Positions 9,001-63,954 of a DNA stretch of 64,000 bases are shown here, piece after piece (positions within the stretch are counted from its first letter, which is position 1; every line of letters starts with the position of its first letter). A program made the translations under genes and the position numbers. A model generated the notes under the pieces. That model was not told where the DNA came from. It saw nothing but the letters and a program-made list of their open reading frames with translations, and ran no database searches. The DNA lies in contig CAKPXF010000001.1 of NCBI GenBank assembly GCA_934201705.1, forward strand, positions 66,783 to 130,782, written 5' to 3'. The stretch is from an uncultured Bacilli bacterium. Its GTDB lineage: Bacteria > Bacillota_I > Bacilli_A > RFN20 > CAG-631.

Positions 9001-10333
9001 AAGAGAAAGTTGCATCGATTTCATGACCCCATGGTGATTTTGTGATTAATTCAAAATCAAATTTAACACCACTTGCTGTTTCAGTCATTTGAGTAACGAT
9101 TCTGAATGCTTTATCAAAACAGTAATAATGAAATTGATTCATGATATTTGGATCATCAGGAAAATTATTAGGAACAATGTTAGTTCCTTCTGTATAGCCT
9201 AAAGATTTATCAAATATGACAGTTCCATTAGCATCTCTTTCAATTACAGCAAAGCCCTTTGTCCAACCCCAAACTAAAGAAACAGAATTATTAGCTTGTA
9301 CCATACCAGTTGTAGCATCAATGCCAAATGTAGTATCATTAGCAAATGTTAAATATTCCCATTTCCAATCAGCCATAGGACTTAATTCAAGGCTTTGATT
9401 AGATGTAAAGTCAACCTTAGAGTTTCCACCAATTTCCTTTGTTTGATAATTAAATGTTGGTCCAGTTGCTTTCATTACATTTCCAGTAAATATAGCATTA
9501 TCACATGCACTCCAATTATCTTTACTAGCTGAATAAATAGTAGGATCAACAATACCCATTGTCATAATGATATTATGATTTTCATCAATAGTACCACTAC
9601 CAGTTCTACCATAAGTTACATGCTTGTCACCTTTTAATTGTTCATTTGTAGAAGTATAAGAAAAAGTAATATCTATATCATGACCCCAAGGCGATTTAGT
9701 AATTAATTCAAAATCAAATTTAACACCATTTGTTATTTCAGTCATTTGGGTAATAATTCTAGATGACTTATTAAAGCAATAAAAATGTGATTCATTTAAT
9801 ATATTAGCTTGATCAGCTCCATACTTTTCAAGCCCTGTTACTTTAACACCAGAATCATCTAAAGATAAGGCTTTGTCAAATACAGCCTTTCCTGTTGAAT
9901 CCTTTTCAATTACAGAAAATCCTTTTCCCCAACCCCAAACTAAAGAAAGTGAATTGCTAGCTGTTGTAATACCAGTTCCAGCATCAATTCCTTTTTCATT
10001 ACTAGTTGAAAATGTTAAATATTCCCATTTCCAATCAGCCATAGGACTTAATTCTAAAGTTTGATCAACTAAAAAATCGACTTTAGAATTACCACTAATT
10101 TTTTGTGTTTGCCAGTTAAAGTTTCCACTTACAGCTTTCATAGAATTTTCAGTAAAAGTTGCGTTAGTTGAATCAGTCCAATTTGATTGATTGTTAGTGA
10201 TAATATCACCACTAACCAAAGCATCTTCTGCAAAAATCTCTACATTAGAATCATTAATTACAAATGATGAAATTGTGATTAATGGAGCTGTTACTACTAA
10301 AGCTAATGTTAATAATTTTTTACCTTTTTTCAT
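6086..10333 (-). CDS. Large (1415 aa) secreted cell-surface protein with a tandemly duplicated ~270-aa domain, coiled-coil regions and the same Cys-containing C-terminal anchor (GCRG, TM, KKRKN)
   Basis: Signal peptide present. Two near-identical internal repeats are visible at protein level (SGNFNWQTQKISGNSKVDF...KSPWGHDID vs TGPTFNYQTKEIGGNSKVDF...KSPWGHEID) and at DNA level. The C-terminus has an EKPSEKPSEEPSS linker, GCRG, a hydrophobic helix and a basic tail. Confidence 0.75.
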   Translation of the reverse strand: MKKGKKLLTLALVVTAPLITISSFVINDSNVEIFAEDALVSGDIITNNQSNWTDSTNATFTENSMKAVSGNFNWQTQKISGNSKVDFLVDQTLELSPMADWKWEYLTFSTSNEKGIDAGTGITTASNSLSLVWGWGKGFSVIEKDSTGKAVFDKALSLDDSGVKVTGLEKYGADQANILNESHFYCFNKSSRIITQMTEITNGVKFDFELITKSPWGHDIDITFSYTSTNEQLKGDKHVTYGRTGSGTIDENHNIIMTMGIVDPTIYSASKDNWSACDNAIFTGNVMKATGPTFNYQTKEIGGNSKVDFTSNQSLELSPMADWKWEYLTFANDTTFGIDATTGMVQANNSVSLVWGWTKGFAVIERDANGTVIFDKSLGYTEGTNIVPNNFPDDPNIMNQFHYYCFDKAFRIVTQMTETASGVKFDFELITKSPWGHEIDATFSYTSTNASLKGNTKHVTYGRTGSGTINENHNIEVTMKVNNIEAVDVPIIPTTKYECKLDNGYTFEKIEANEGFAHSFASSLNLLEGQEFNVNFLVDDEKSAHGYDAVKSFVDNSTNEVKYQGSFYEKGNDGKIKINVNGTYKVIVNVKENNEVEINLEVLSYSLIDVANKYHSDANYWQTLYNAAINDGTMSQTGIQSLGITKEFNGNATVKFVLDYTALDSSWGGVVLMVKGQAEEFSKVLWTFNNTTNTIVPSNANGSFIALCITHAGYQLIVCDEGNINVIGTDQTFLIPGVDGNSFWFICQQKTEVTFDVLDVTDGVKLNISYYASRKGETYSNEILLPYKSLWGNQSAGLALTASGNTPDLTNNTISLYVADSKSSYSKDLYYANKFIDELTKINYDTITADNYSDIVNQFNNVTNLYNNLTDTQKELVSSEDINKYNQIKSDLENVDVVVLAKLALEKLNEVNEAYNRVNYERQAKIVKDASAKYELLTDEQKSQCDATLVKKLEECKKALDKYEDILSYADPVVALIAKINLPITNYAKDSRTILAAKKAYDELYDIEKSEVTNADLLEQSLIALKEYEDANKIDGYNFAQTKDNIYELDGFDDMQAKDGSLIVNSSTNDLSIYTTAKALNEMEFTWIIDSNLQKCTWGNFYFIVRADSIAKHHNKGSWLQEGNYMVLLVGGDGFKIVECVNGVIPMTKDAAGNPLADFKTILDYPTDEEGSQLDIHHIYKNYTKISIKTIDLYENDEYVGYKAIISLTGGESGKTFVREYISTNKDSKDCGYFGLEAFVSDPINQGSGGFEIKGIYIEGVTSYDGVKVKNDIKNKQIAKECDALLEQVITNVNKDNLESAKSAYEMAKNAYDALTDEQKSLLTKDANVLNEAKLAIYKVIKDSEEKPSEKPSEEPSSTPTEITSSSEIINSSTNNTSSNEEKPNENKKGCRGEASCLIGMLALLGALCLKKRKN

Positions 10334-54127: not shown

Positions 54128-54550
54128 TTACGAGATGGATTTTTCTTTATTTTCATACATTAATCTTGTTAATTCCTTACAAACACCTTCACAGTCTTTA
54201 ACAAAATTATATTTATATGTTCCTTTTTTAGAGCTTATTATTATTTTACCATAAGAATATGAATAGCCTTTTGCTGTAGCCTTTCTATAAGAAATATCAA
54301 TTAAATCACTACAGCTTAATTTTATATTTTTAGGTAATATTAATTCGTTATTTTCATTTAGCTTAATGATTTCTTTAGGAGTATTTAAATAAACTACTAT
54401 AAAATAAATAGACATTGCTGATAAGATTATTCCTATAAAAGAAAAGGCAAATTTACTATTTGCTCCAAGGACAATAATAATTAATCCTAAAATAAAGCTA
54501 ATTATATAAAAAACTATAGGTGATTTTTCTCTTGTTGCGATTACTTTCAT
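54128..54550 (-). CDS. Small membrane protein (2 TM helices plus ~80-aa soluble domain), unknown
   Basis: 140-aa ORF with a hydrophobic N-terminal half. Confidence 0.4.
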   Translation of the reverse strand: MKVIATREKSPIVFYIISFILGLIIIVLGANSKFAFSFIGIILSAMSIYFIVVYLNTPKEIIKLNENNELILPKNIKLSCSDLIDISYRKATAKGYSYSYGKIIISSKKGTYKYNFVKDCEGVCKELTRLMYENKEKSIS

Positions 54551-54771
54551 TATTTATCAACTTCTTTCTTAAAAATTACATATTTATTCTTTAAAGATAT
54601 TTTATCAACCTTTATATTATATTGCTCTAATTCCTTTTTATATTTTAAAAAAGAATGGTCAAGGGGAATGCTAGCAATTTTATTAATATCAGCAAACGAT
54701 AAAGTAAGATTATTATTATTTTCTTTAAAGTATTCAATTAAGTATTTCCATAATAAATTATACTTGTCCAT
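54550..54771 (-). CDS. Hypothetical protein (73 aa)
   Basis: The ORF is translationally coupled (ATGA overlap) to the downstream small membrane protein gene. Confidence 0.35.
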   Translation of the reverse strand: MDKYNLLWKYLIEYFKENNNNLTLSFADINKIASIPLDHSFLKYKKELEQYNIKVDKISLKNKYVIFKKEVDK

Positions 54772-54826
54772 ATTTTTCTCCTAATACTATATTATTATAT
54801 AAAAAATAAACTCTTTTTAAAAGAGT

Positions 54827-55219
54827 TTATACATCAATTATTTCATCACTAAGCTTAATTTTGTAGCATTTAATGACTTTATATTTATCATTGCTTTTTA
54901 ATAAATAATCATATGTTTTAGTAAAATCATAGCTTTCTACTAAATATTTTTTATTAATTCCTTCTTCAATTACATAGCATTTATCCTTTAATAGCTCCAT
55001 TAATTTTTTACTATTACAAATTTTAATGAATAAAACTAGGTTTTCTCTATCAAATGATGATATAATCATTTTCTTTTTATCGTTTTTATCATTTATAATA
55101 TAAAATACCGTTTGAGAAAATAAATATGTAACAAAAGATGATGATTTATAATATAAGCTTTTTATGTGATTTTTACTATTTGTAAAAAAAGATTTAATTT
55201 TCTTTTGATTTTCGTTCAT
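54827..55219 (-). CDS. Hypothetical protein (130 aa)
   Basis: ORF overlapping the 3' end of asd by 26 nt. No motif recognised. Confidence 0.35.
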   Translation of the reverse strand: MNENQKKIKSFFTNSKNHIKSLYYKSSSFVTYLFSQTVFYIINDKNDKKKMIISSFDRENLVLFIKICNSKKLMELLKDKCYVIEEGINKKYLVESYDFTKTYDYLLKSNDKYKVIKCYKIKLSDEIIDV

Positions 55220-56794: not shown

Positions 56795-56841
56795 AAAGCA
56801 CATTGTGCTTTTTTTCTTTTTAAAAGAGTTTAATAACATTA

Positions 56842-56874
56842 AAAGGCTGTGAATATTAGCACTCACAACCTTTT
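56842..56874. repeat. Degenerate copy of the repeated terminator hairpin plus 3'-UTR remnant of an immunity-gene paralogue
   Basis: aaaaggctgtgaatattagcactcacaaccttttaagtaacataagctaaagattaatt aligns to the 3' flank of the paralogues at 58123..58175 and 60653..60712, with mismatches. Confidence 0.6.
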
Positions 56875-56948
56875 AAGTAACATAAGCTAAAGATTAATTA
56901 CAACTATTTGAAATATATCATTTTCTATTACAATTTTTTTGGATAAGT

Positions 56949-57881
56949 TTATATTATTTTATCAAGAGTTTGTTTAATTTCTACTTCAAGTTTTTTAATT
57001 TCTTGTTTTAAACATTCAAAATCGTTTGCACTACTAACAATGAGATGCCTATCCATGATTTGTTCAAATTCAACAAATTTTTTTGATATAAATGAATATT
57101 TAGAAGTAATTTGATTACAAATTCTATTTTCATCAGTTAAATAAAATGCAATATACATTCCATATTTTCTAATCAGACTACATATAAAAGCACAATAATC
57201 TTCATTTACAAGGTTAATACTATCATTAACTACTAAGTCATAATATTCAATATACTGGTGCCCACAGGCAGATGATTTGCCAAAATTTTCAATATTAAAT
57301 GTGTGATTTGTAATATTATATTCGATTATTCCACAACTTTGGTTTTCTAAAGCACCTTGAGAAAATACTAAATGTAAAATATTCTTATGAATAGCAATTT
57401 TTAATAAAATAATATCCATAACAGGTAGATTTTTTAATAATAATAATTCTTTTGTTTTTATATTATAAATATATGATTTGTTTCTTTTTACTTTATAAAA
57501 TAAAATATACTCATTATAATTATAATAATCAAAATTTTCTGAGATATTGCTTTGATTTATTATTTCACATTTTAAATAATCTACCACAACTATTTTTTTA
57601 TTCTTAAATGCAAATAATAAATTATCATAAACTACAGCTGAGTAAACTGCACATATTTTAAAAAAGTTAACATGATTATCTTTTATAATTTCAATACCTT
57701 TTTCATAATCAAATACTATTAAGCAGTTATTACAATAAATTGGTTTTATAACATCATCAATAATGTCTTTAAAATTTGTATCATAATTTAAAATCAATTG
57801 ATTGTTACCATATAATGAAAATCTTTTATTACACACCTCATATGCCAATACTGTTTTGTCGACATTAATAAAATATTTCAT
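56949..57881 (-). CDS. Hypothetical protein (310 aa), putative immunity protein of the cassette array
   Basis: The ORF lies immediately downstream of a truncated toxin stub (58020..58100) in the same orientation. No recognisable motifs. Confidence 0.45.
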   Translation of the reverse strand: MKYFINVDKTVLAYEVCNKRFSLYGNNQLILNYDTNFKDIIDDVIKPIYCNNCLIVFDYEKGIEIIKDNHVNFFKICAVYSAVVYDNLLFAFKNKKIVVVDYLKCEIINQSNISENFDYYNYNEYILFYKVKRNKSYIYNIKTKELLLLKNLPVMDIILLKIAIHKNILHLVFSQGALENQSCGIIEYNITNHTFNIENFGKSSACGHQYIEYYDLVVNDSINLVNEDYCAFICSLIRKYGMYIAFYLTDENRICNQITSKYSFISKKFVEFEQIMDRHLIVSSANDFECLKQEIKKLEVEIKQTLDKII

Positions 57882-58019
57882 ATTGTTTTCCCCTCCATAC
57901 TTATTATAAACTATATATCCATGTCATAAATTAATTTCATAATTTTTTTTGCATGTTCCCAAGCATTTTTATCATTTACTTGCCCTGAATCTAAAATTTT
58001 TTAACATGATTTTATCTAA

Positions 58020-58100
58020 TGTACAACTAATAAACTACTACCAACTACATACGTATGATAACATAAAATATTAAATGTTGTAAATGCTACTTCATTTACT
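58020..58100 (-). other. Truncated toxin constant-segment stub (encodes ...EVAFTTFNILCYHTYVVGSSLLVVH*), copy 1 of 4
   Basis: ~75 bp nearly identical to 59516..59585 and 60556..60635. There is no start codon and an in-frame stop comes right after LLVVH. Confidence 0.6.
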
Positions 58101-58128
58101 ATTATAGAGATTAAAGATAAAAGGCTGT

Positions 58129-58154
58129 GAATATTAGCACTCACAGCCTTTTAA
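58129..58154. repeat. Repeated terminator hairpin (ggctgtga-atattagcac-tcacagcc), copy 2
   Basis: Perfect 8-bp inverted repeat flanked by A/T tracts, ~10 nt downstream of the stop of the 331-aa gene. Confidence 0.65.
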
Positions 58155-58164
58155 GCAACATGCG

Positions 58165-59160
58165 CTAAAGATTAATTTCTATGATATCTTCATCATCTAC
58201 ATCATGATATCCCATAAATGCTCTTGTATTTATAAAAGTGTTATTAGCATTAGTATTTTTTAGTTCCATATAGGTATCCTGTAATATCTTTTGAATATAA
58301 GCATAAGCTTCAAAGAATTCCATTTTATTAATATTATCAAAATCTAATCTTATAGTGTTTTTATCAAAGCAATATGTTTCTTCATCAAACCATTTATTAA
58401 TGTAACCTCCAAGACTTAAGCTATATCCTTTTTCTTCTTCAATGAAGGTATAGAATATATATTTACATTTTGATTTTACAATTTTTGAATTTGATAAGTG
58501 TTCAAACCATGCTTTTATTAGTTCTTTTTCATTTTTATAGTTGTTTTCAAAATATGTAATGCAATATTCTAATTTATCATCTTCTTTTTTTAATTCTTTT
58601 ATACAAGCACCAGTAAATTTTTGCTTTTTAAATGCTTTTACTAAATCATCGCTTATACAAAGCCTTAAATCAAATAATTCTTTGTCAAAAGGAATAGATT
58701 TATCTGTATATATTTTCCTCATAGTAGCAATATGCTTATCATTTTCATCAAAATTGTATGTTGTATAAGCAATGCCACTATTAAATGATCTAATTGGGAT
58801 AACCTCTTTTGGTAACATTAAATAATAGTCACCATCGATTTTAATATTTTTATTGCGTACACTGAGTTCAACCTTTTTAAATAACAAGTTAGATGCTAAA
58901 TTATTACTATTTAAATAATCATATACTCGTTTAGTTATTAGGAAAAACGGATGAAGAAGCGAATACATAAAATCTTGCATGCTTTTTTCCTCATTATATG
59001 AAATATCACTTGTTACAGCTTCTTTAACATTTTCATAAATCCACATAATAGTTTCTTTATCATATCTATAATGATTTTTATCAGTTCCCACTTTAAAACC
59101 TTCAACGTCGTAATAAAAATTATAGTCATCGCCAAAATCTGTACTTTTTATTATTTTCAT
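58165..59160 (-). CDS. Putative immunity protein (331 aa), paralogue B; >95% identical to 60700..61689
   Basis: Strong RBS (AAAGGAG). It lies immediately downstream of the HNH-like toxin C-terminal cassette. The near-identical duplicate is 2.5 kb away. Confidence 0.6.
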   Translation of the reverse strand: MKIIKSTDFGDDYNFYYDVEGFKVGTDKNHYRYDKETIMWIYENVKEAVTSDISYNEEKSMQDFMYSLLHPFFLITKRVYDYLNSNNLASNLLFKKVELSVRNKNIKIDGDYYLMLPKEVIPIRSFNSGIAYTTYNFDENDKHIATMRKIYTDKSIPFDKELFDLRLCISDDLVKAFKKQKFTGACIKELKKEDDKLEYCITYFENNYKNEKELIKAWFEHLSNSKIVKSKCKYIFYTFIEEEKGYSLSLGGYINKWFDEETYCFDKNTIRLDFDNINKMEFFEAYAYIQKILQDTYMELKNTNANNTFINTRAFMGYHDVDDEDIIEINL

Positions 59161-59182
59161 ATGTTAACTTAGAATCTCCTTT

Positions 59183-59584
59183 CTATTTTATAAATAGTTC
59201 AAGTATTGCATCACATGCTTTTTCACCATTTTTTCTGAGACATTCATAATTATCCTTTACTAAATTCCCCAGTTTTTCCATTTCTTTTGTAAACTCTCCA
59301 AAATCATCAGTTTTATCTAATGCAGATTTAACACATTTATCAATCGTATCATGATATGCATCTGTATGACGACCTTTGTGTTGTGGGATTTCTACTTTAT
59401 TCCATCTATCATTTAAGTTGGCTTCAGGGAATTTATCTTTTGTTTTATTTCCAATTTCATTTCCTTTTTTCCCTTTATTACTTACTGTATGGTGGCATTC
59501 GTTATGTACAACTAATAATTCATTACCAACTACATACGTATGATAACATAAAACATTAAATGTTGTAAATGCTACTTCCTTTGC
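59183..59584 (-). other. Orphan polymorphic-toxin C-terminal cassette with no start codon: constant segment EVAFTTFNVLCYHTYVVGNELLVV plus an HNH/EndoVII-like nuclease domain
   Basis: Hand translation of the minus strand gives AKEVAFTTFNVLCYHTYVVGNELLVVHNECHHTVSNKGKKGNEIGNKTKDKFPEANLNDRWNKVEIPQHKGRHTDAYHDTIDKCVKSALDKTDDFGEFTKEMEKLGNLVKDNYECLRKNGEKACDAILELFIK*. The open frame begins right after a stop with no ATG/GTG/TTG start. The HH...N...H...H spacing fits the LHH/AHH/Tox-HNH-EHHH toxin domains. Confidence 0.5.
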
Positions 59585-59654
59585 TTAATTAAATTCATTG
59601 GTTATTTTAATTAAATATCATATTTTTTATAAATTTTGAGCAAAAACGGATATA

Positions 59655-59692
59655 ACAATTTTACATTATTACATCCGTTTAAATAAATCTAT
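59655..59692 (-). terminator. Hairpin terminator downstream of the 214-aa gene
   Basis: aaacggat-ataacaattttacattattac-atccgttt. Confidence 0.45.
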
Positions 59693-59716
59693 TGATTGCT
59701 TAATAGCATTTATATG

Positions 59717-60361
59717 CTATAAGTCTATTTTTTTTGAGATTAATTTTTTTACAAAAATAATACAGTATTTAGCAATTATAATTTTTTTATAATTGTCAAT
59801 TTTATTTACCATATATTCTTTCTTTAATACTCTTAATTCTTTGAGTAAATCATTCAAATCATTGTATTTATAAATATCAATATCAAAGAATTTTTTACAT
59901 GATTTTTTAAATTCCTTAATGTTATAGATACCATCTTTTCCAACAGTGAAATAGATATTTGGCTTTATTTTATGTACAATATTAGCTGCATTATCAACAA
60001 TATCAGTATACATATAATATCTTTTTGCCAATATATTATCATAGCATTCAATGTTTAATGAAATATCTTTTATATTGTTTTTATTATCTTTTAAAATACA
60101 TTCGATTTTCCTTAAAATATCTTCAGTAAATAAGTACATTATAGCATCAGAACATGAAAAACCACAAAATAAAAAATCTGAAAACATTATGTTCAAAGAA
60201 TATGTTTCTTCTTCCTCATATAAAACTTCTATTAATATATCATCATTTCTCTTGAAATTATTAAAATACGAAAGAGTTTTCTCTTTGTTTTTTTCGTTAA
60301 AGAATTTTATAGAGTAAGCAATATAAAATCTAGGCATTTCTTTTAGTTGTTCATAATTCAT
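59717..60361 (-). CDS. Hypothetical protein (214 aa), putative immunity protein
   Basis: The ORF follows the toxin stub at 60373..60635 in the same orientation. Confidence 0.45.
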   Translation of the reverse strand: MNYEQLKEMPRFYIAYSIKFFNEKNKEKTLSYFNNFKRNDDILIEVLYEEEETYSLNIMFSDFLFCGFSCSDAIMYLFTEDILRKIECILKDNKNNIKDISLNIECYDNILAKRYYMYTDIVDNAANIVHKIKPNIYFTVGKDGIYNIKEFKKSCKKFFDIDIYKYNDLNDLLKELRVLKKEYMVNKIDNYKKIIIAKYCIIFVKKLISKKIDL

Positions 60362-60372
60362 ATCATTTTCTC

Positions 60373-60635
60373 CTAATTATATCTTTTAAAGTATCTTTGA
60401 TTACTTTTTTCTTCAATTATTAGTGGCATCTTAATATATATTATAATTAGACATATTTTATCTATATTTCCTAAAGATTTATCTTTTAAAATATCAGTTT
60501 TAAATTCTTTGCTAATTTGATTTTTATCAACTTTTAGGTTTACGTAAATACTATATACAACTAATAAACTACTGCTAATTACATACGTATGATAACATAA
60601 AATATTAAATGTTGTAAATGCTACTTCATTTACTA
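60373..60635 (-). other. Toxin constant segment plus a divergent short C-terminal tail (track ORF of 107 aa), copy 3 of 4
   Basis: It encodes ...NEVAFTTFNILCYHTYVISSSLLVVYSIYVNLKVDKNQ... The first ~25 codons match the other copies, then it diverges. Confidence 0.5.
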
Positions 60636-60652
60636 TTATATAGATTAAAGAT

Positions 60653-60690
60653 AAAAGACTGTGAGTGTTAGTATTCACAGCCCTTTTAAG
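60653..60690. repeat. Repeated terminator hairpin, copy 3 (slightly diverged: gactgtga...tcacagcc)
   Basis: Same position relative to the paralogue A stop as copy 2 has to paralogue B. Confidence 0.6.
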
Positions 60691-60699
60691 CAACATGCG

Positions 60700-61689
60700 C
60701 TAAAGATTAATTTCTATGATATCTTCATCATCTACGTCATGATATCCCATAAATGCTCTTGTATTTATAAAAGTGTTATTAGCATTAGTATTTTTTAGTT
60801 CCATATAGGTATCCTGTAATATCTTTTGAATATAAGCATAAGCTTCAAAGAATTCCATTTTATTAATATTATCAAAATCTAATCTTATAGTGTTTTTATC
60901 AAAGCAATATGTTTCTTCATCAAACCATTTATTAATGTAACCTCCAAGACTTAAGCTATATCCTTTTTCTTCTTCAATGAAGGTATAGAATATATATTTA
61001 CATTTTGATTTTACAATTTTTGAATTTGATAAGTGTTCAAACCATGCTTTTATTAGTTCTTTTTCATTTTTATAGTTGTTTTCAAAATATGTAATGCAAT
61101 ATTCTAATTTATCATCTTCTTTTTTTAATTCTTCTATACAAGCACCAGTAAATTTTTGCTTTTTAAATGATTTTACTAAATCATCACTTATACAAAGCCT
61201 TAAATTAAATAATTCTTTGTCAAAAGGAATAGATTCATCTGTATATATTTTTTCCATATCAGCGATATGCTTATCATTTTCATCAAAATCGTATGTTGTA
61301 TAAGCAATACCACTATTAAAAGATCTAATTGGTATAACCTCTTTTGGTAGCATTAAATAATAGTCACCATTGATTTTAATATTTTTATTTCGTACACTGG
61401 GATTAACCTTTTTAAATAATAAGTTAGATGCTAAATTATTACTATTTAAATAATCATATACTCGTTTAGTTACTAGGAAAAATGAATGAAGAAGCGAATA
61501 CATAAAATCTTGCATGCTTTTTTTCTCATTATATGAAATATCACTTGTTACAGCTTCTTTAGCATTTTCATAAATCCACATAATAGTTTCTTTATCATAT
61601 CTATAATGATTTTTATCAGTTCCCACTTTAAAGCCTTCAACGTCGTAATAATGATTATCGCCAAAATAAGTATATCCTATTAATTTCAT
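60700..61689 (-). CDS. Putative immunity protein (329 aa), paralogue A; >95% identical to 58165..59160 except for the N-terminal ~15 residues
   Basis: Near-identical protein and DNA, e.g. one mismatch in the first 90 nt from the stop codon. It is preceded only by a badly decayed toxin stub. Confidence 0.6.
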   Translation of the reverse strand: MKLIGYTYFGDNHYYDVEGFKVGTDKNHYRYDKETIMWIYENAKEAVTSDISYNEKKSMQDFMYSLLHSFFLVTKRVYDYLNSNNLASNLLFKKVNPSVRNKNIKINGDYYLMLPKEVIPIRSFNSGIAYTTYDFDENDKHIADMEKIYTDESIPFDKELFNLRLCISDDLVKSFKKQKFTGACIEELKKEDDKLEYCITYFENNYKNEKELIKAWFEHLSNSKIVKSKCKYIFYTFIEEEKGYSLSLGGYINKWFDEETYCFDKNTIRLDFDNINKMEFFEAYAYIQKILQDTYMELKNTNANNTFINTRAFMGYHDVDDEDIIEINL

Positions 61690-61725
61690 ATGCTATTTGT
61701 AATCTCCTTTTAATAACAATTCATT

Positions 61726-61800
61726 TGTCAACTACATATGTATGATAACATAAAATATCAAACACTGTAAACGTTGATTTATTCGCATAATTCGTCAAGT
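61726..61800 (-). other. Most degraded copy of the toxin constant segment (encodes ...FTVFDILCYHTYVVDK*), copy 4 of 4
   Basis: caactacatatgtatgataacataaaatatcaaacactgtaaacg aligns to the other three copies with ~20% mismatch. Confidence 0.45.
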
Positions 61801-62019
61801 TCAACTAATAATACTTTAACAAATCAATTGGATATTTTAATCAAATCATATTTTATTAATTCACAACTATCTTATATAAATACATTATGATTAAGCATAT
61901 AGATATTTAGTATGAATATAGTAATGGTTTTATATTTACTCTAACTATAATTTTAATAAAAGATCCCCAATTTAGCAAATGGGGATTGATTTTTAAAATA
62001 TTATTAAGCTTTTGAATGA

Positions 62020-62388
62020 TTAAAATTTATAGTTATCTAATGCTTCCTTTAAGTATTTTTCTTCTTTTAAAAACTTTGAAACTGATGGTGAATTAATAGC
62101 AATTACCTCAAGTGTATCAATATTATTGGCAAATAAATCATTAACTGTAATATATTTATTAAAGCTTTCAGCAATGTATATTTCTAAATTATCACCAACA
62201 ATAGCAATCCTTTCAAAGGCTGTTGTATAAATATCAAATGTTGAAAAGCATTTATTATCTACCTTTACATCCTTTAATAGTAATTGCAAAGAAAAGAAAA
62301 AATCGACAAGATTCATATCTTTACTTACTGGTACTTTTGTATCAACAAATTTATTGTTAATTGTTAGATTAATATTAATGTCCATTTT
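62020..62388 (-). CDS. Hypothetical protein
   Basis: The track ORF of 149 aa overlaps the upstream gene by 80 nt. The internal Met (MDININ...) is the likely start. Confidence 0.35.
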   Translation of the reverse strand, partial: KMDININLTINNKFVDTKVPVSKDMNLVDFFFSLQLLLKDVKVDNKCFSTFDIYTTAFERIAIVGDNLEIYIAESFNKYITVNDLFANNIDTLEVIAINSPSVSKFLKEEKYLKEALDNYKF

Positions 62389-62389
62389 A

Positions 62390-63109
62390 TTATTCCTCAT
62401 CGAAGGTTTCTTTAAATCTACCCATAAATGATATTGGCTCATTCTTAACATATAAATGAGAAATATCACCTAAGCATTGGGCTCTAAAATGAGCAATTCC
62501 TTTTTCCTTTTCTTCAGTGTAGATAATACTAACAGATGTTGGAGCAAAGGCAATATGTTGAGCAATTGCTACAAATGGTATATTAAATAAACGAGATAGT
62601 AAAACACTTTCAAGCCCTAAATGAGCAAAGATAACAATTGTATCTTTATTTGGCTTAACAGCTTTATAATATAAGCCATTTCTTGTATAGCCATGCTTTT
62701 TTAATAAATTATCAAATGATGATATAACATAGTTATAGCCTTCATGAACATTTGAATCAACATTAAATAAAGGATTATCTAAATATTTACTATTATCATA
62801 GAAATCACTTTTTTCCTCACACATATATTTATCATCAAAATCCCATGGGATTCTATCATTATGTGTTTTATAATCTTTTATTTTATAAGGAAATTCTTGA
62901 AGCCAATCACAAGTTTCATAAGGCATGTTTGTTGCTTTTAAATAAGGATCAGCAGTAAATTTTGCCCTATTTAATGGAGAAACATAAACATAATCAATTT
63001 TTTCTTTGATTAATCTATCTTTTAATAATTCAGCTTCCTTAAAGCCTTTTTCTGTTAAGGTATTATCCTTATAATTTGGTTCTCCATGCCTTATAATAAT
63101 TATACGCAT
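62390..63109 (-). CDS. Histidine phosphatase family protein (phosphoglycerate mutase-like)
   Basis: N-terminal RHG motif (IIIIRHGEPNY). 239 aa. Confidence 0.65.
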   Translation of the reverse strand: MRIIIIRHGEPNYKDNTLTEKGFKEAELLKDRLIKEKIDYVYVSPLNRAKFTADPYLKATNMPYETCDWLQEFPYKIKDYKTHNDRIPWDFDDKYMCEEKSDFYDNSKYLDNPLFNVDSNVHEGYNYVISSFDNLLKKHGYTRNGLYYKAVKPNKDTIVIFAHLGLESVLLSRLFNIPFVAIAQHIAFAPTSVSIIYTEEKEKGIAHFRAQCLGDISHLYVKNEPISFMGRFKETFDEE

Positions 63110-63954
63110 TAAAGATCAACCACCATTCCATCATAAGATACATCAACATTATACTTGCTAGCTACTTCTTTCATTTCATCATAAGTAGCATTACCATTAT
63201 GAGAAAAATGATTAGCGATTATTTTAGTATGCTCATCAATAATATTGTGTTTTTTCATTTCATTAATTACCTCTAGGAAAATATCAAATGATAAGTGACC
63301 ATCACGCCAATTATTTAATAAGCAAGCAGTACAATCAAGGCTTACCATATCTAAAGGCTTTTTAATTGCTTTTAAATATTCCCAAGCTTTTTCTTTAAAG
63401 AATCCTGTATCATGGGCATAAAGAATTTGAATGTCATTTTGTTTTATTAAATAAATAAAAGGTTCTGACAAAGGATCATGATTAGCCTCTAAGGCGACTA
63501 TTTCATAATTTAATACCTTAAATGGTACATATGGCTTAACAATTACTGGTTGAACAAGCTTTTCAGTAATACCTTCAGCATTGATTGCTTCAACAACCAT
63601 TTTATTTACAAGAGTGGAACCATAAATATACAAAGACTCTTTTTCAGCAAATCTTGTGTAGCCACTACTTCTATAAATTAATTCATTTGGATAAAAATGA
63701 TCGCTATGAGCATGAGTTATTAGAACATGATGAATTCTATCAAGACGTACATCATAATTAAACATATGATAATATGACTCAGGTCCAAAATCAATTAATA
63801 GCTCATCGTTAATAATAGCTTGGCTTCTAGTTCTAATATCCTTACCTTTATTCTTCCAAGCCTTTAAGCATGTTTTACATTGGCAATATAATGCCGGAAT
63901 CCCTTCAGCTGCTGCTGTTCCTAAATATTGAAATTTCATTTTTATTTCCTCCAT
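63109..63954 (-). CDS. MBL-fold metallo-hydrolase
   Basis: Metallo-beta-lactamase HxHxDH motif (HVLITHAHSDHF). 281 aa. Confidence 0.7.
   Translation of the reverse strand: MEEIKMKFQYLGTAAAEGIPALYCQCKTCLKAWKNKGKDIRTRSQAIINDELLIDFGPESYYHMFNYDVRLDRIHHVLITHAHSDHFYPNELIYRSSGYTRFAEKESLYIYGSTLVNKMVVEAINAEGITEKLVQPVIVKPYVPFKVLNYEIVALEANHDPLSEPFIYLIKQNDIQILYAHDTGFFKEKAWEYLKAIKKPLDMVSLDCTACLLNNWRDGHLSFDIFLEVINEMKKHNIIDEHTKIIANHFSHNGNATYDEMKEVASKYNVDVSYDGMVVDL

Follow-up and report, generated by a model that had tools for sequence, protein, structure and literature searches.

In the main-plus-orphan arrays described for Rhs and CdiA toxins (Poole et al. 2011, PMC3150448; Koskiniemi et al. 2014, PMC3967940), toxin tips that have no start codon, each accompanied by an immunity gene, lie downstream of a main toxin gene. 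They share short stretches of homology with the conserved region of that gene, recombination at these stretches fuses tips or deletes cassettes, and cassette content varies from strain to strain. For Rhs orphans in Salmonella, both fusion to the main gene and removal by homologous recombination have been demonstrated experimentally (PMC3967940). We analysed a 64-kb stretch of DNA from an uncultured gut bacterium (assembly GCA_934201705.1, contig CAKPXF010000001.1, positions 66,783 to 130,782; hereafter the window, 27% G+C), and found that positions 56840-61892 on its minus strand most probably form a degenerate polymorphic toxin locus of Candidatus Caccosoma (gut Bacillota), in which two copies of an immunity gene, here called imm331, derive from separate modules. 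The orphan tips at this locus likewise have no start codon and retain a short stretch of homology to the main gene.

Both copies are on the minus strand, as are a further 3'-end remnant and all relevant genes. We refer to the gene at 58165-59160 (331 aa) as copy A and to that at 60700-61689 (329 aa) as copy B. When the region was aligned to itself with BLASTN, 58019-59182 matched 60553-61710 over 1165 nt at 94.85% identity (3 gaps, E = 0), and a repeat finder returned a near-perfect block of 300 nt (58147-58446 = 60682-60981), in which 299 of 300 positions matched in a separate alignment. An earlier reading of these letters, made without database searches (the sequence-only reading), had reported two long, near-identical copies encoding proteins of 331 and 329 aa and had proposed self-alignment as the check, which bears it out; its figure of more than 95% identity captured a real likeness and was slightly too high, given that the two proteins are 93.7% identical. 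The repeat unit begins on its 5' side at the ribosome-binding site (RBS) AAAGGAGATT, just upstream of imm331, and on its 3' side runs past the stop codon, through a hairpin and into a further ~80-nt element, ending ~150 nt beyond the stop. Inclusion of the hairpin in the unit had been recognised correctly, and the extent first given for it was too short, as the units continue ~80 nt past the hairpin. A third 3'-end remnant, also spotted in the earlier reading, was located at 56840-56899 (60 nt, 93% identical to 58118-58177 by both the repeat finder and BLASTN).

The two copies are 2.5 kb apart, and the 1.37-kb spacer between them holds a different cassette, composed of a decayed toxin tip (tip 2) and a 214-aa immunity gene. 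Upstream of the RBS their flanks are unrelated: copy A lies behind an uninterrupted AHH tip (59186-59584) and copy B behind a decayed stub (61714-61892). The sequence-only reading was right that the upstream regions differ and that an HNH-type toxin tip and a decayed stub precede the copies, and it missed that the array lacks a full-length toxin. Its placing of copy A behind the stub and copy B behind the tip is correct if A denotes the copy that is upstream in transcription order (60700-61689), and reversed if the copies are lettered in the order of their coordinates.

The key repeated element, overlooked in that reading's account of the repeats, is a stretch of ~65-80 nt coding for the C-terminal end of a HINT domain (HINT-C), which occurs four times in the window (H0 to H3) against 0 copies expected by chance. 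Apart from those at the ends of the two repeat units, copies lie at 59504-59585 and 61714-61792. In frame, the element reads '(E)VAFTTFN(I/V)LCYHTYVVG..LLVVHN' and aligns to the end of the PT-HINT domain of full-length toxins. In one of these, P0005 (1296 aa; named by NCBI as an RHS repeat-associated core domain-containing protein, from a Candidatus Caccosoma sp. metagenome-assembled genome), PT-HINT occupies residues 1065-1191 (62.4 bits, cut-off 27.7) and AHH follows directly at 1190-1256. Across P0005-P0018, the RHS and HINT regions are common up to '...VVHN', after which the proteins continue into at least five unrelated C-termini. No complete PT-HINT (PF07591) is present in the window, which holds the last ~26 codons of the domain four times and a decayed remnant of ~60 codons; none of these fragments has a Pfam match. 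The orphan tip at 59186-59584 consists of 26 codons of the HINT C-terminus (H2) followed by an uninterrupted AHH domain (Pfam PF14412; HNH/EndoVII; 29.7 bits, cut-off 22.3), and hardly differs from the C-terminal end of the full-length L003 toxin (a sister strain). It carries the motif C-H-H, as do all full-length Caccosoma toxins, with 'HKGRH..YH' downstream. No start codon lies ahead of its catalytic 'CHH', and the sole open reading frame (ORF) with a start codon in this frame covers the last 32 aa.

All four HINT-C copies also contain a promoter-like TTTACA-18-TATCAT with an upstream TG. A promoter within the element was considered and rejected, as promoter-like matches numbered 57 against 58.2 expected in shuffled sequence of this AT-rich region, and the conservation of the match is attributed to coding constraint. 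A single scan of species-representative genomes with the HINT element returned a single locus, L014 (1-1741 of CAKPZU010000037.1), a result that has no bearing on other loci of the window strain. From position 1078, the HINT-AHH segment of L014 is 100% identical to that of sister strain L011, and the sequence upstream is unrelated; this locus may represent a further truncated toxin or an orphan belonging to a different array, unless the contig is chimeric.

We compared the two copies along their length and found divergence to be strongly mosaic. All 21 amino-acid differences fall in residues 3-188, densest at the start, and synonymous (dS) and nonsynonymous (dN) divergence were 0.127 and 0.056 over codons 1-190 (dN/dS, omega, 0.44), compared with 0.014 and 0 from codon 191 to the end. 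Between strains of the species, the flanking asd gene has a dS of 0.05-0.10, a range exceeded by the 5' value, so that the 5' halves are older than the strain splits. Over the 3' part the copies differ at 1 position in ~450 nt, against 7-9 per 300 nt between strains, a pattern that points to gene conversion or to a recent common origin confined to this part. The proposal of a recent duplication was thus wrong for the 5' halves and suits the near-identity of the 3' halves alone. Nor are the differences limited to the first ~15 codons, or the breakpoint placed inside the 5' end of the gene: the 5' boundary of the repeat coincides with the RBS, and the sharp shift in divergence is at about codon 190, where structure prediction places a domain boundary.

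The same division is seen among alleles, in which residues 1 to ~160/190 are variable (down to 76% identity for the whole protein) and residues ~190-331 almost invariant. Between L003 and L011, a hypervariable island of ~660 nt (40-70% identity, between flanks 95-100% identical) extends from ~160 nt before the end of the toxin gene to ~480 nt into the immunity gene, and the last ~58 residues of the toxin switch class jointly with the N-terminal domain of the immunity protein. A tentative extension, which we consider doubtful, is that the variable toxin end (last ~55 residues) and immunity residues 1 to ~160-190 make up one swappable specificity module, exchanged by double crossover between invariant homology arms. 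These arms may be the HINT domain plus AHH catalytic core in the toxin and, in the immunity protein, the invariant C-terminal domain. The latter occurs in only ~9 protein clusters out of 1.84 billion and may serve an additional, separate function.

A role for imm331 in immunity is supported by its site right after an AHH toxin, by subthreshold matches to Imm11 and by its co-variation with the toxin. Imm11 is associated with AHH, SHH or HNH toxins (PMC3482391), and imm331 is paired in the genome with an AHH toxin; moreover, imm331 and the 214-aa and 310-aa genes of the array (imm214 and imm310) all belong directly 3' of a toxin tip, as judged by homologues that follow intact toxins. The family is small, with 4 clusters in a search of 5.8 billion proteins and 9 clusters in a full HMMER scan of 1.84 billion representatives. 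Two distant members, P0127 and P0130, match Imm11 (PF07791) at 17.6 and 14.1 bits (below the cut-off of 22.1) over residues ~54-132, a Pfam region that would place the similarity in the N-terminal domain. The fold predicted by AF2 agrees with that of the Imm11 prototype MXAN_0049. For this comparison we used a model that included distant homologues, and set aside one built with 5 near-identical sequences (predicted local distance difference test, pLDDT, 36.5). Presumably, then, the N-terminal domain of imm331 is Imm11-like and binds the AHH tip. These results favour the suggestion in the sequence-only reading that the repeated genes are immunity genes of a polymorphic toxin system, a role predicted here from sequence. 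A profile search against sequences in the Protein Data Bank gave nothing meaningful (an albumin match at E 0.6 was ignored), and weak matches to tRNA_lig_kinase (17 bits) among window proteins were dismissed as noise.

We assessed how the same chromosomal site is arranged in sister strains, where the flanking DNA is 96-98% identical to the window. Copy number and arrangement differ among strains, a comparison the sequence-only reading had called for, and at least four versions of the site exist: one immunity gene behind an intact toxin; a toxin and immunity gene with an ISL3 element; an orphan array with one imm331; and an orphan array with two and no toxin, as in the window. The simplest state is that of L011, in which a 121-aa gene is followed by a 1296-aa toxin, one imm331, a terminator and a convergent 158-aa gene. 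In L003, L005 and L006 a toxin (884 aa) precedes imm331 and an ISL3 element lies in the terminator, with the hairpin and a HINT-C copy found beyond it in L006. The 1296-aa toxin combines Laminin_G_3, RHS repeats, PT-HINT and a C-terminal AHH nuclease, and imm331 starts 10-21 nt beyond the toxin stop in L011 and L003. Six further loci (L001, L002, L004 and L007-L009) have the window-type array but only one imm331, which follows the orphan AHH tip. Four of these (L001, L002, L007, L008) carry ISL3 between the 121-aa gene and H0, and in L004 and L009 the sequence ends too soon upstream to tell. The ISL3-family transposase elements thus occupy two insertion points, at 6569-8297 in L001 and, in the terminator hairpin after imm331, from ~11017 onward in L003 and at 4859-6139 in L006; no ISL3 element is present at either point in the window.

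L001 lacks the segment corresponding to window positions 61729-60630, which contains copy B. Its junction is a hybrid that follows the H0 sequence up to TGCGAATAAATCA and the H1 sequence from GCATTTACAAC, and the two arrangements consequently differ by one homologous exchange inside HINT-C. This junction within the repeated HINT element, along with the different cassette between the copies, agrees with the earlier proposal of recombination-driven cassette shuffling in place of tandem duplication. The HINT sequence that precedes copy B (H0, 61714-61892, minus strand) is a decayed 3' remnant of the PT-HINT of the main toxin, ending in TFTVFDILCYHTYVVDK and a stop ('HTYVVDK*'). It is 79.6% identical to 9462-9650 of the L003 toxin, and it aligns as HINT sequence of the main-gene type that has lost an internal segment and is interrupted by stop codons, with only a 27-aa ORF present; the N-terminal region of the toxin (>2.2 kb) and the AHH domain are missing next to it. 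A tblastn search found no full-length HINT toxin in the window, so the large, putatively secreted toxin with its conserved N-terminal and repeat region, present at this site in sister strains, is absent from the window. We regard loss of copy B in L001 as more parsimonious than its gain in the window lineage. H0 in the window is of the main-gene type and adjoins further remnant of the toxin gene, as expected if copy B was the immunity gene of the main toxin itself.

In the model that we propose, secretion of the main toxin would be accompanied by autoproteolysis of HINT, an activity known for PT-HINT (Zhang et al. 2012, PMC3482391), which would free the AHH tip, and the downstream immunity protein would neutralise this tip. 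Orphan tips and immunity genes would gather downstream of the main toxin, and HINT-C homology would be the site at which cassettes insert, fuse to the main gene or loop out. In the window strain, the main toxin has been destroyed by deletion at both ends, with ~180 nt of the HINT 3' end left and four immunity genes kept (copy B, the 214-aa gene, copy A and the 310-aa gene). The two imm331 copies would represent two AHH/immunity modules that share a specificity class but are distinct, one main and one orphan, and not a tandem duplicate that arose in situ; copy B would be the immunity gene of the main toxin itself, because the H0 sequence upstream of it is main-gene HINT contiguous with further toxin remnant. 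The 5' halves would code for the specificity domain and carry the older divergence, and recombination or gene conversion may have kept the 3' halves identical or made them so. Because the main gene is deleted at both ends, only immunity functions can still matter, and the most likely status of the window strain at this locus is that of an immune non-producer. Such a strain would resist the AHH and other tips of sister strains and would be incapable of deploying a toxin from this locus.

Several observations weigh against this account. The view of the genome is limited to 64 kb, and a full-length toxin may lie elsewhere. The imm331 proteins of the window have no Imm11 match at the Pfam cut-off of 22.1 bits, the structure model is of moderate quality (pLDDT 77.7; predicted template modelling score, pTM, 0.52), and toxin and immunity activities, like the order of events, are deduced from sequence relationships. 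The L001 junction sequence fits gain of copy B in the window lineage as well as its loss in L001. Furthermore, copies A and B are mutually closest among the alleles seen, matching at 460/500 (92%) of their 5' 500 nt, compared with 448/500 and 432/500 (86-90%) to the L001 allele, so an older duplication within the array could also account for them. This mutual closeness is one argument for a segmental duplication within the lineage, in which the orphan module donated a copy of the unit RBS-imm331-terminator-HINT-C to the start of the array and the specificity domain then diverged fast under selection. Such a copy could have arisen by unequal exchange, or by excision of a circle between two HINT-C repeats followed by its re-integration at the main HINT. 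It would explain why the 3' 450 nt differ by one base and why the units stop at the same HINT-C position, with the terminator and an orphan-type HINT-C flank common to both. We nevertheless judge it improbable, given that dS over codons 1-190 exceeds that of the flanking housekeeping gene between strains and that an omega of 0.44 implies an excess of divergence not produced by positive selection alone; the main-gene HINT and toxin remnant before copy B also fit with copy B being the immunity gene of the main module. One unequal HINT-C crossover was rejected as the origin of the two copies, as it would have duplicated the whole 2.5-kb block, imm214 included, which is not seen.

A simple head-to-tail tandem duplication of the immunity gene is very unlikely. 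The copies are on the same strand and 2.5 kb apart, as such an event might leave them, but an unrelated 1.37-kb cassette separates them, their 5' flanks are unrelated beyond the RBS, and divergence is far from uniform between the 5' and 3' parts. Least probable of all, to a degree that we regard as negligible, is a collapsed or mis-joined repeat assembled from a mixed population. The source is probably metagenome-derived, and differently arranged strains co-exist in such samples. However, two other metagenome samples yielded contigs (343 kb and 307 kb) that match the window at 99.91% and 99.96% identity and are collinear with it through both copies, which shows that the two-copy arrangement is not an assembly artefact; the exact copy B protein occurs in two other assemblies. 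Separate main and orphan modules that recombine at HINT-C thus remain our preferred explanation for the two copies.

In transcription order, the locus is preceded in every strain by the conserved 121-aa gene (62020-62385, minus strand), which is followed by its own terminator and was called at the equivalent position in L001, L003, L011, L012 and L013. Its product has no Pfam or NCBIfam match, and might serve the toxin system as an accessory factor or simply be a neighbour; the 149-aa ORF listed for it uses a GTG start that overlaps the histidine phosphatase gene and is probably an over-extension. After H0 comes copy B, within the repeat unit 60553-61710 and in the cognate-immunity position of the lost main toxin, followed by a hairpin (60652-60689) identified by its inverted repeat and its BLAST match to 58119-58153 in the copy A hairpin; it is a weaker version of the latter and did not pass the terminator scan. 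The next element (60373-60634) consists of H1, a HINT C-terminal fragment in which 'VVHN' has changed to 'VVYS', fused to the decayed tip 2, of the P0016/P0017 type. The tip 2 motif NQISKEFKTDILKDKSLGNIDK agrees with the C-termini of the intact toxins P0016 and P0017 before the sequences diverge. A 107-aa ORF at 60373-60696 (minus strand; called in L013) was rejected as a gene, being a read-through of the copy B terminator, HINT-C and the decayed tip. The imm214 gene of this cassette (59717-60361) is 64% identical to the gene directly after the intact toxin P0017.

Beyond the orphan AHH tip lies copy A, predicted to be its cognate immunity gene (repeat unit 58019-59182), with a terminator-like hairpin at 58118-58154 that has a 16-bp stem and a T-rich tail in the terminator scan. 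H3 and the tip 3 remnant follow at 57911-58100, as a HINT-C copy ending in a stop ('...LLVVH*') and then the last 27 codons of a tip, LDSGQVNDKNAWEHAKKIMKLIYDMDI and a stop, which correspond to the end of a P0011/P0012-type AHH-like tip in a comparison by eye of the C-termini of P0011-P0013. The imm310 gene of this third cassette (56949-57881) is 43% identical (E 3e-89) to the gene directly after the intact toxin P0011. P0011 and P0017, an intact toxin in L015 and an intact RHS-HINT toxin in L017, respectively, carry tips that match the cassettes. The distal remnant (56840-56899), which comprises the last ~13 nt of an imm331 gene and a terminator hairpin that passes the terminator scan, abuts the convergent 158-aa gene and is collinear with the end of the simple L011 toxin-immunity locus up to that gene; on this sequence evidence, it is the original end of the locus.

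Related cassettes were observed elsewhere. At 6001-10480 in L017, a different chromosomal site of a related genome, an RHS-HINT toxin is followed by a 214-aa immunity gene and accompanied by two further HINT-containing ORFs (310 aa and 85 aa), which makes this site another orphan array of that toxin family. At 3034-3965 in L004, the 310-aa immunity gene is broken into ORFs of 216 aa and 69 aa, which suggests a pseudogene, in DNA otherwise collinear with the window. Two genes upstream of the toxin locus is an MBL-fold hydrolase (63109-63954, minus strand), whose orthologues in sister strains have precomputed Pfam matches to Anti-Pycsar_Apyc1 (PF23023) and Lactamase_B_2. Downstream of asd, three small genes (54128-55219, minus strand; 130, 73 and 140 aa) are kept in all sister strains; their products have no Pfam or NCBIfam match, and the 130-aa ORF overlaps the 3' end of asd by 26 nt. 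Across the Pfam and NCBIfam scans, nothing above threshold was obtained for the 331-, 329-, 214-, 310-, 149/121-, 130-, 73- and 140-aa proteins of the window.

The locus provides a clear natural example of the evolution of a polymorphic toxin locus within one human-gut species, with one recombination junction placed in a ~65-nt HINT-coding repeat. It also gives a small unannotated family a predicted role, as an Imm11-like AHH immunity protein, and suggests that toxin-less, 'immune only' strains exist beside producers in uncultured gut Bacillota. The new points are modest, namely the HINT C-terminus as homology element, the unannotated family and the population snapshot with a mapped junction, and current understanding of polymorphic toxin systems is unchanged by them.

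Compared with the Rhs and CdiA arrays, the homology here is the end of PT-HINT in place of the Rhs PxxxxDPxGL core or the CdiA VENN motif, and the host is an uncultured gut Bacillota of Gram-positive type; unlike in those arrays, the main gene is destroyed, and the orphans are thus not reactivatable from this locus. Relative to known AHH/Imm11 pairs (PMC3482391; Myxococcus MXAN_0049/0050, PMC12077181), the window proteins fall below the Pfam Imm11 threshold, imm331 has an extra C-terminal domain of ~130 aa with no detectable relatives outside its 9-cluster family, and the toxin motif is CHH, not AHH. The esaG and tipC immunity arrays of type VII secretion systems (Garrett et al. 2022, PMC9484751) likewise contain non-identical paralogues with high-identity blocks beside variable parts, and their copy gain and loss among close strains has been attributed to homologous recombination; in contrast, there are only two paralogues here, interleaved with unrelated cassettes, and the junction lies in a toxin-derived HINT fragment and not within the immunity gene. 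Immunity genes without a functional cognate toxin are also known as orphan immunity or from immune non-producers (Rhs immunity in Serratia, PMC10539506), and by analogy the genes kept in the window plausibly shield the strain against toxin-producing relatives. The system is of a known kind, with a previously unannotated immunity family that has an extra, invariant C-terminal domain, and its two-copy imm331 arrangement is of a sort that recombination normally produces in bacterial toxin/immunity loci.

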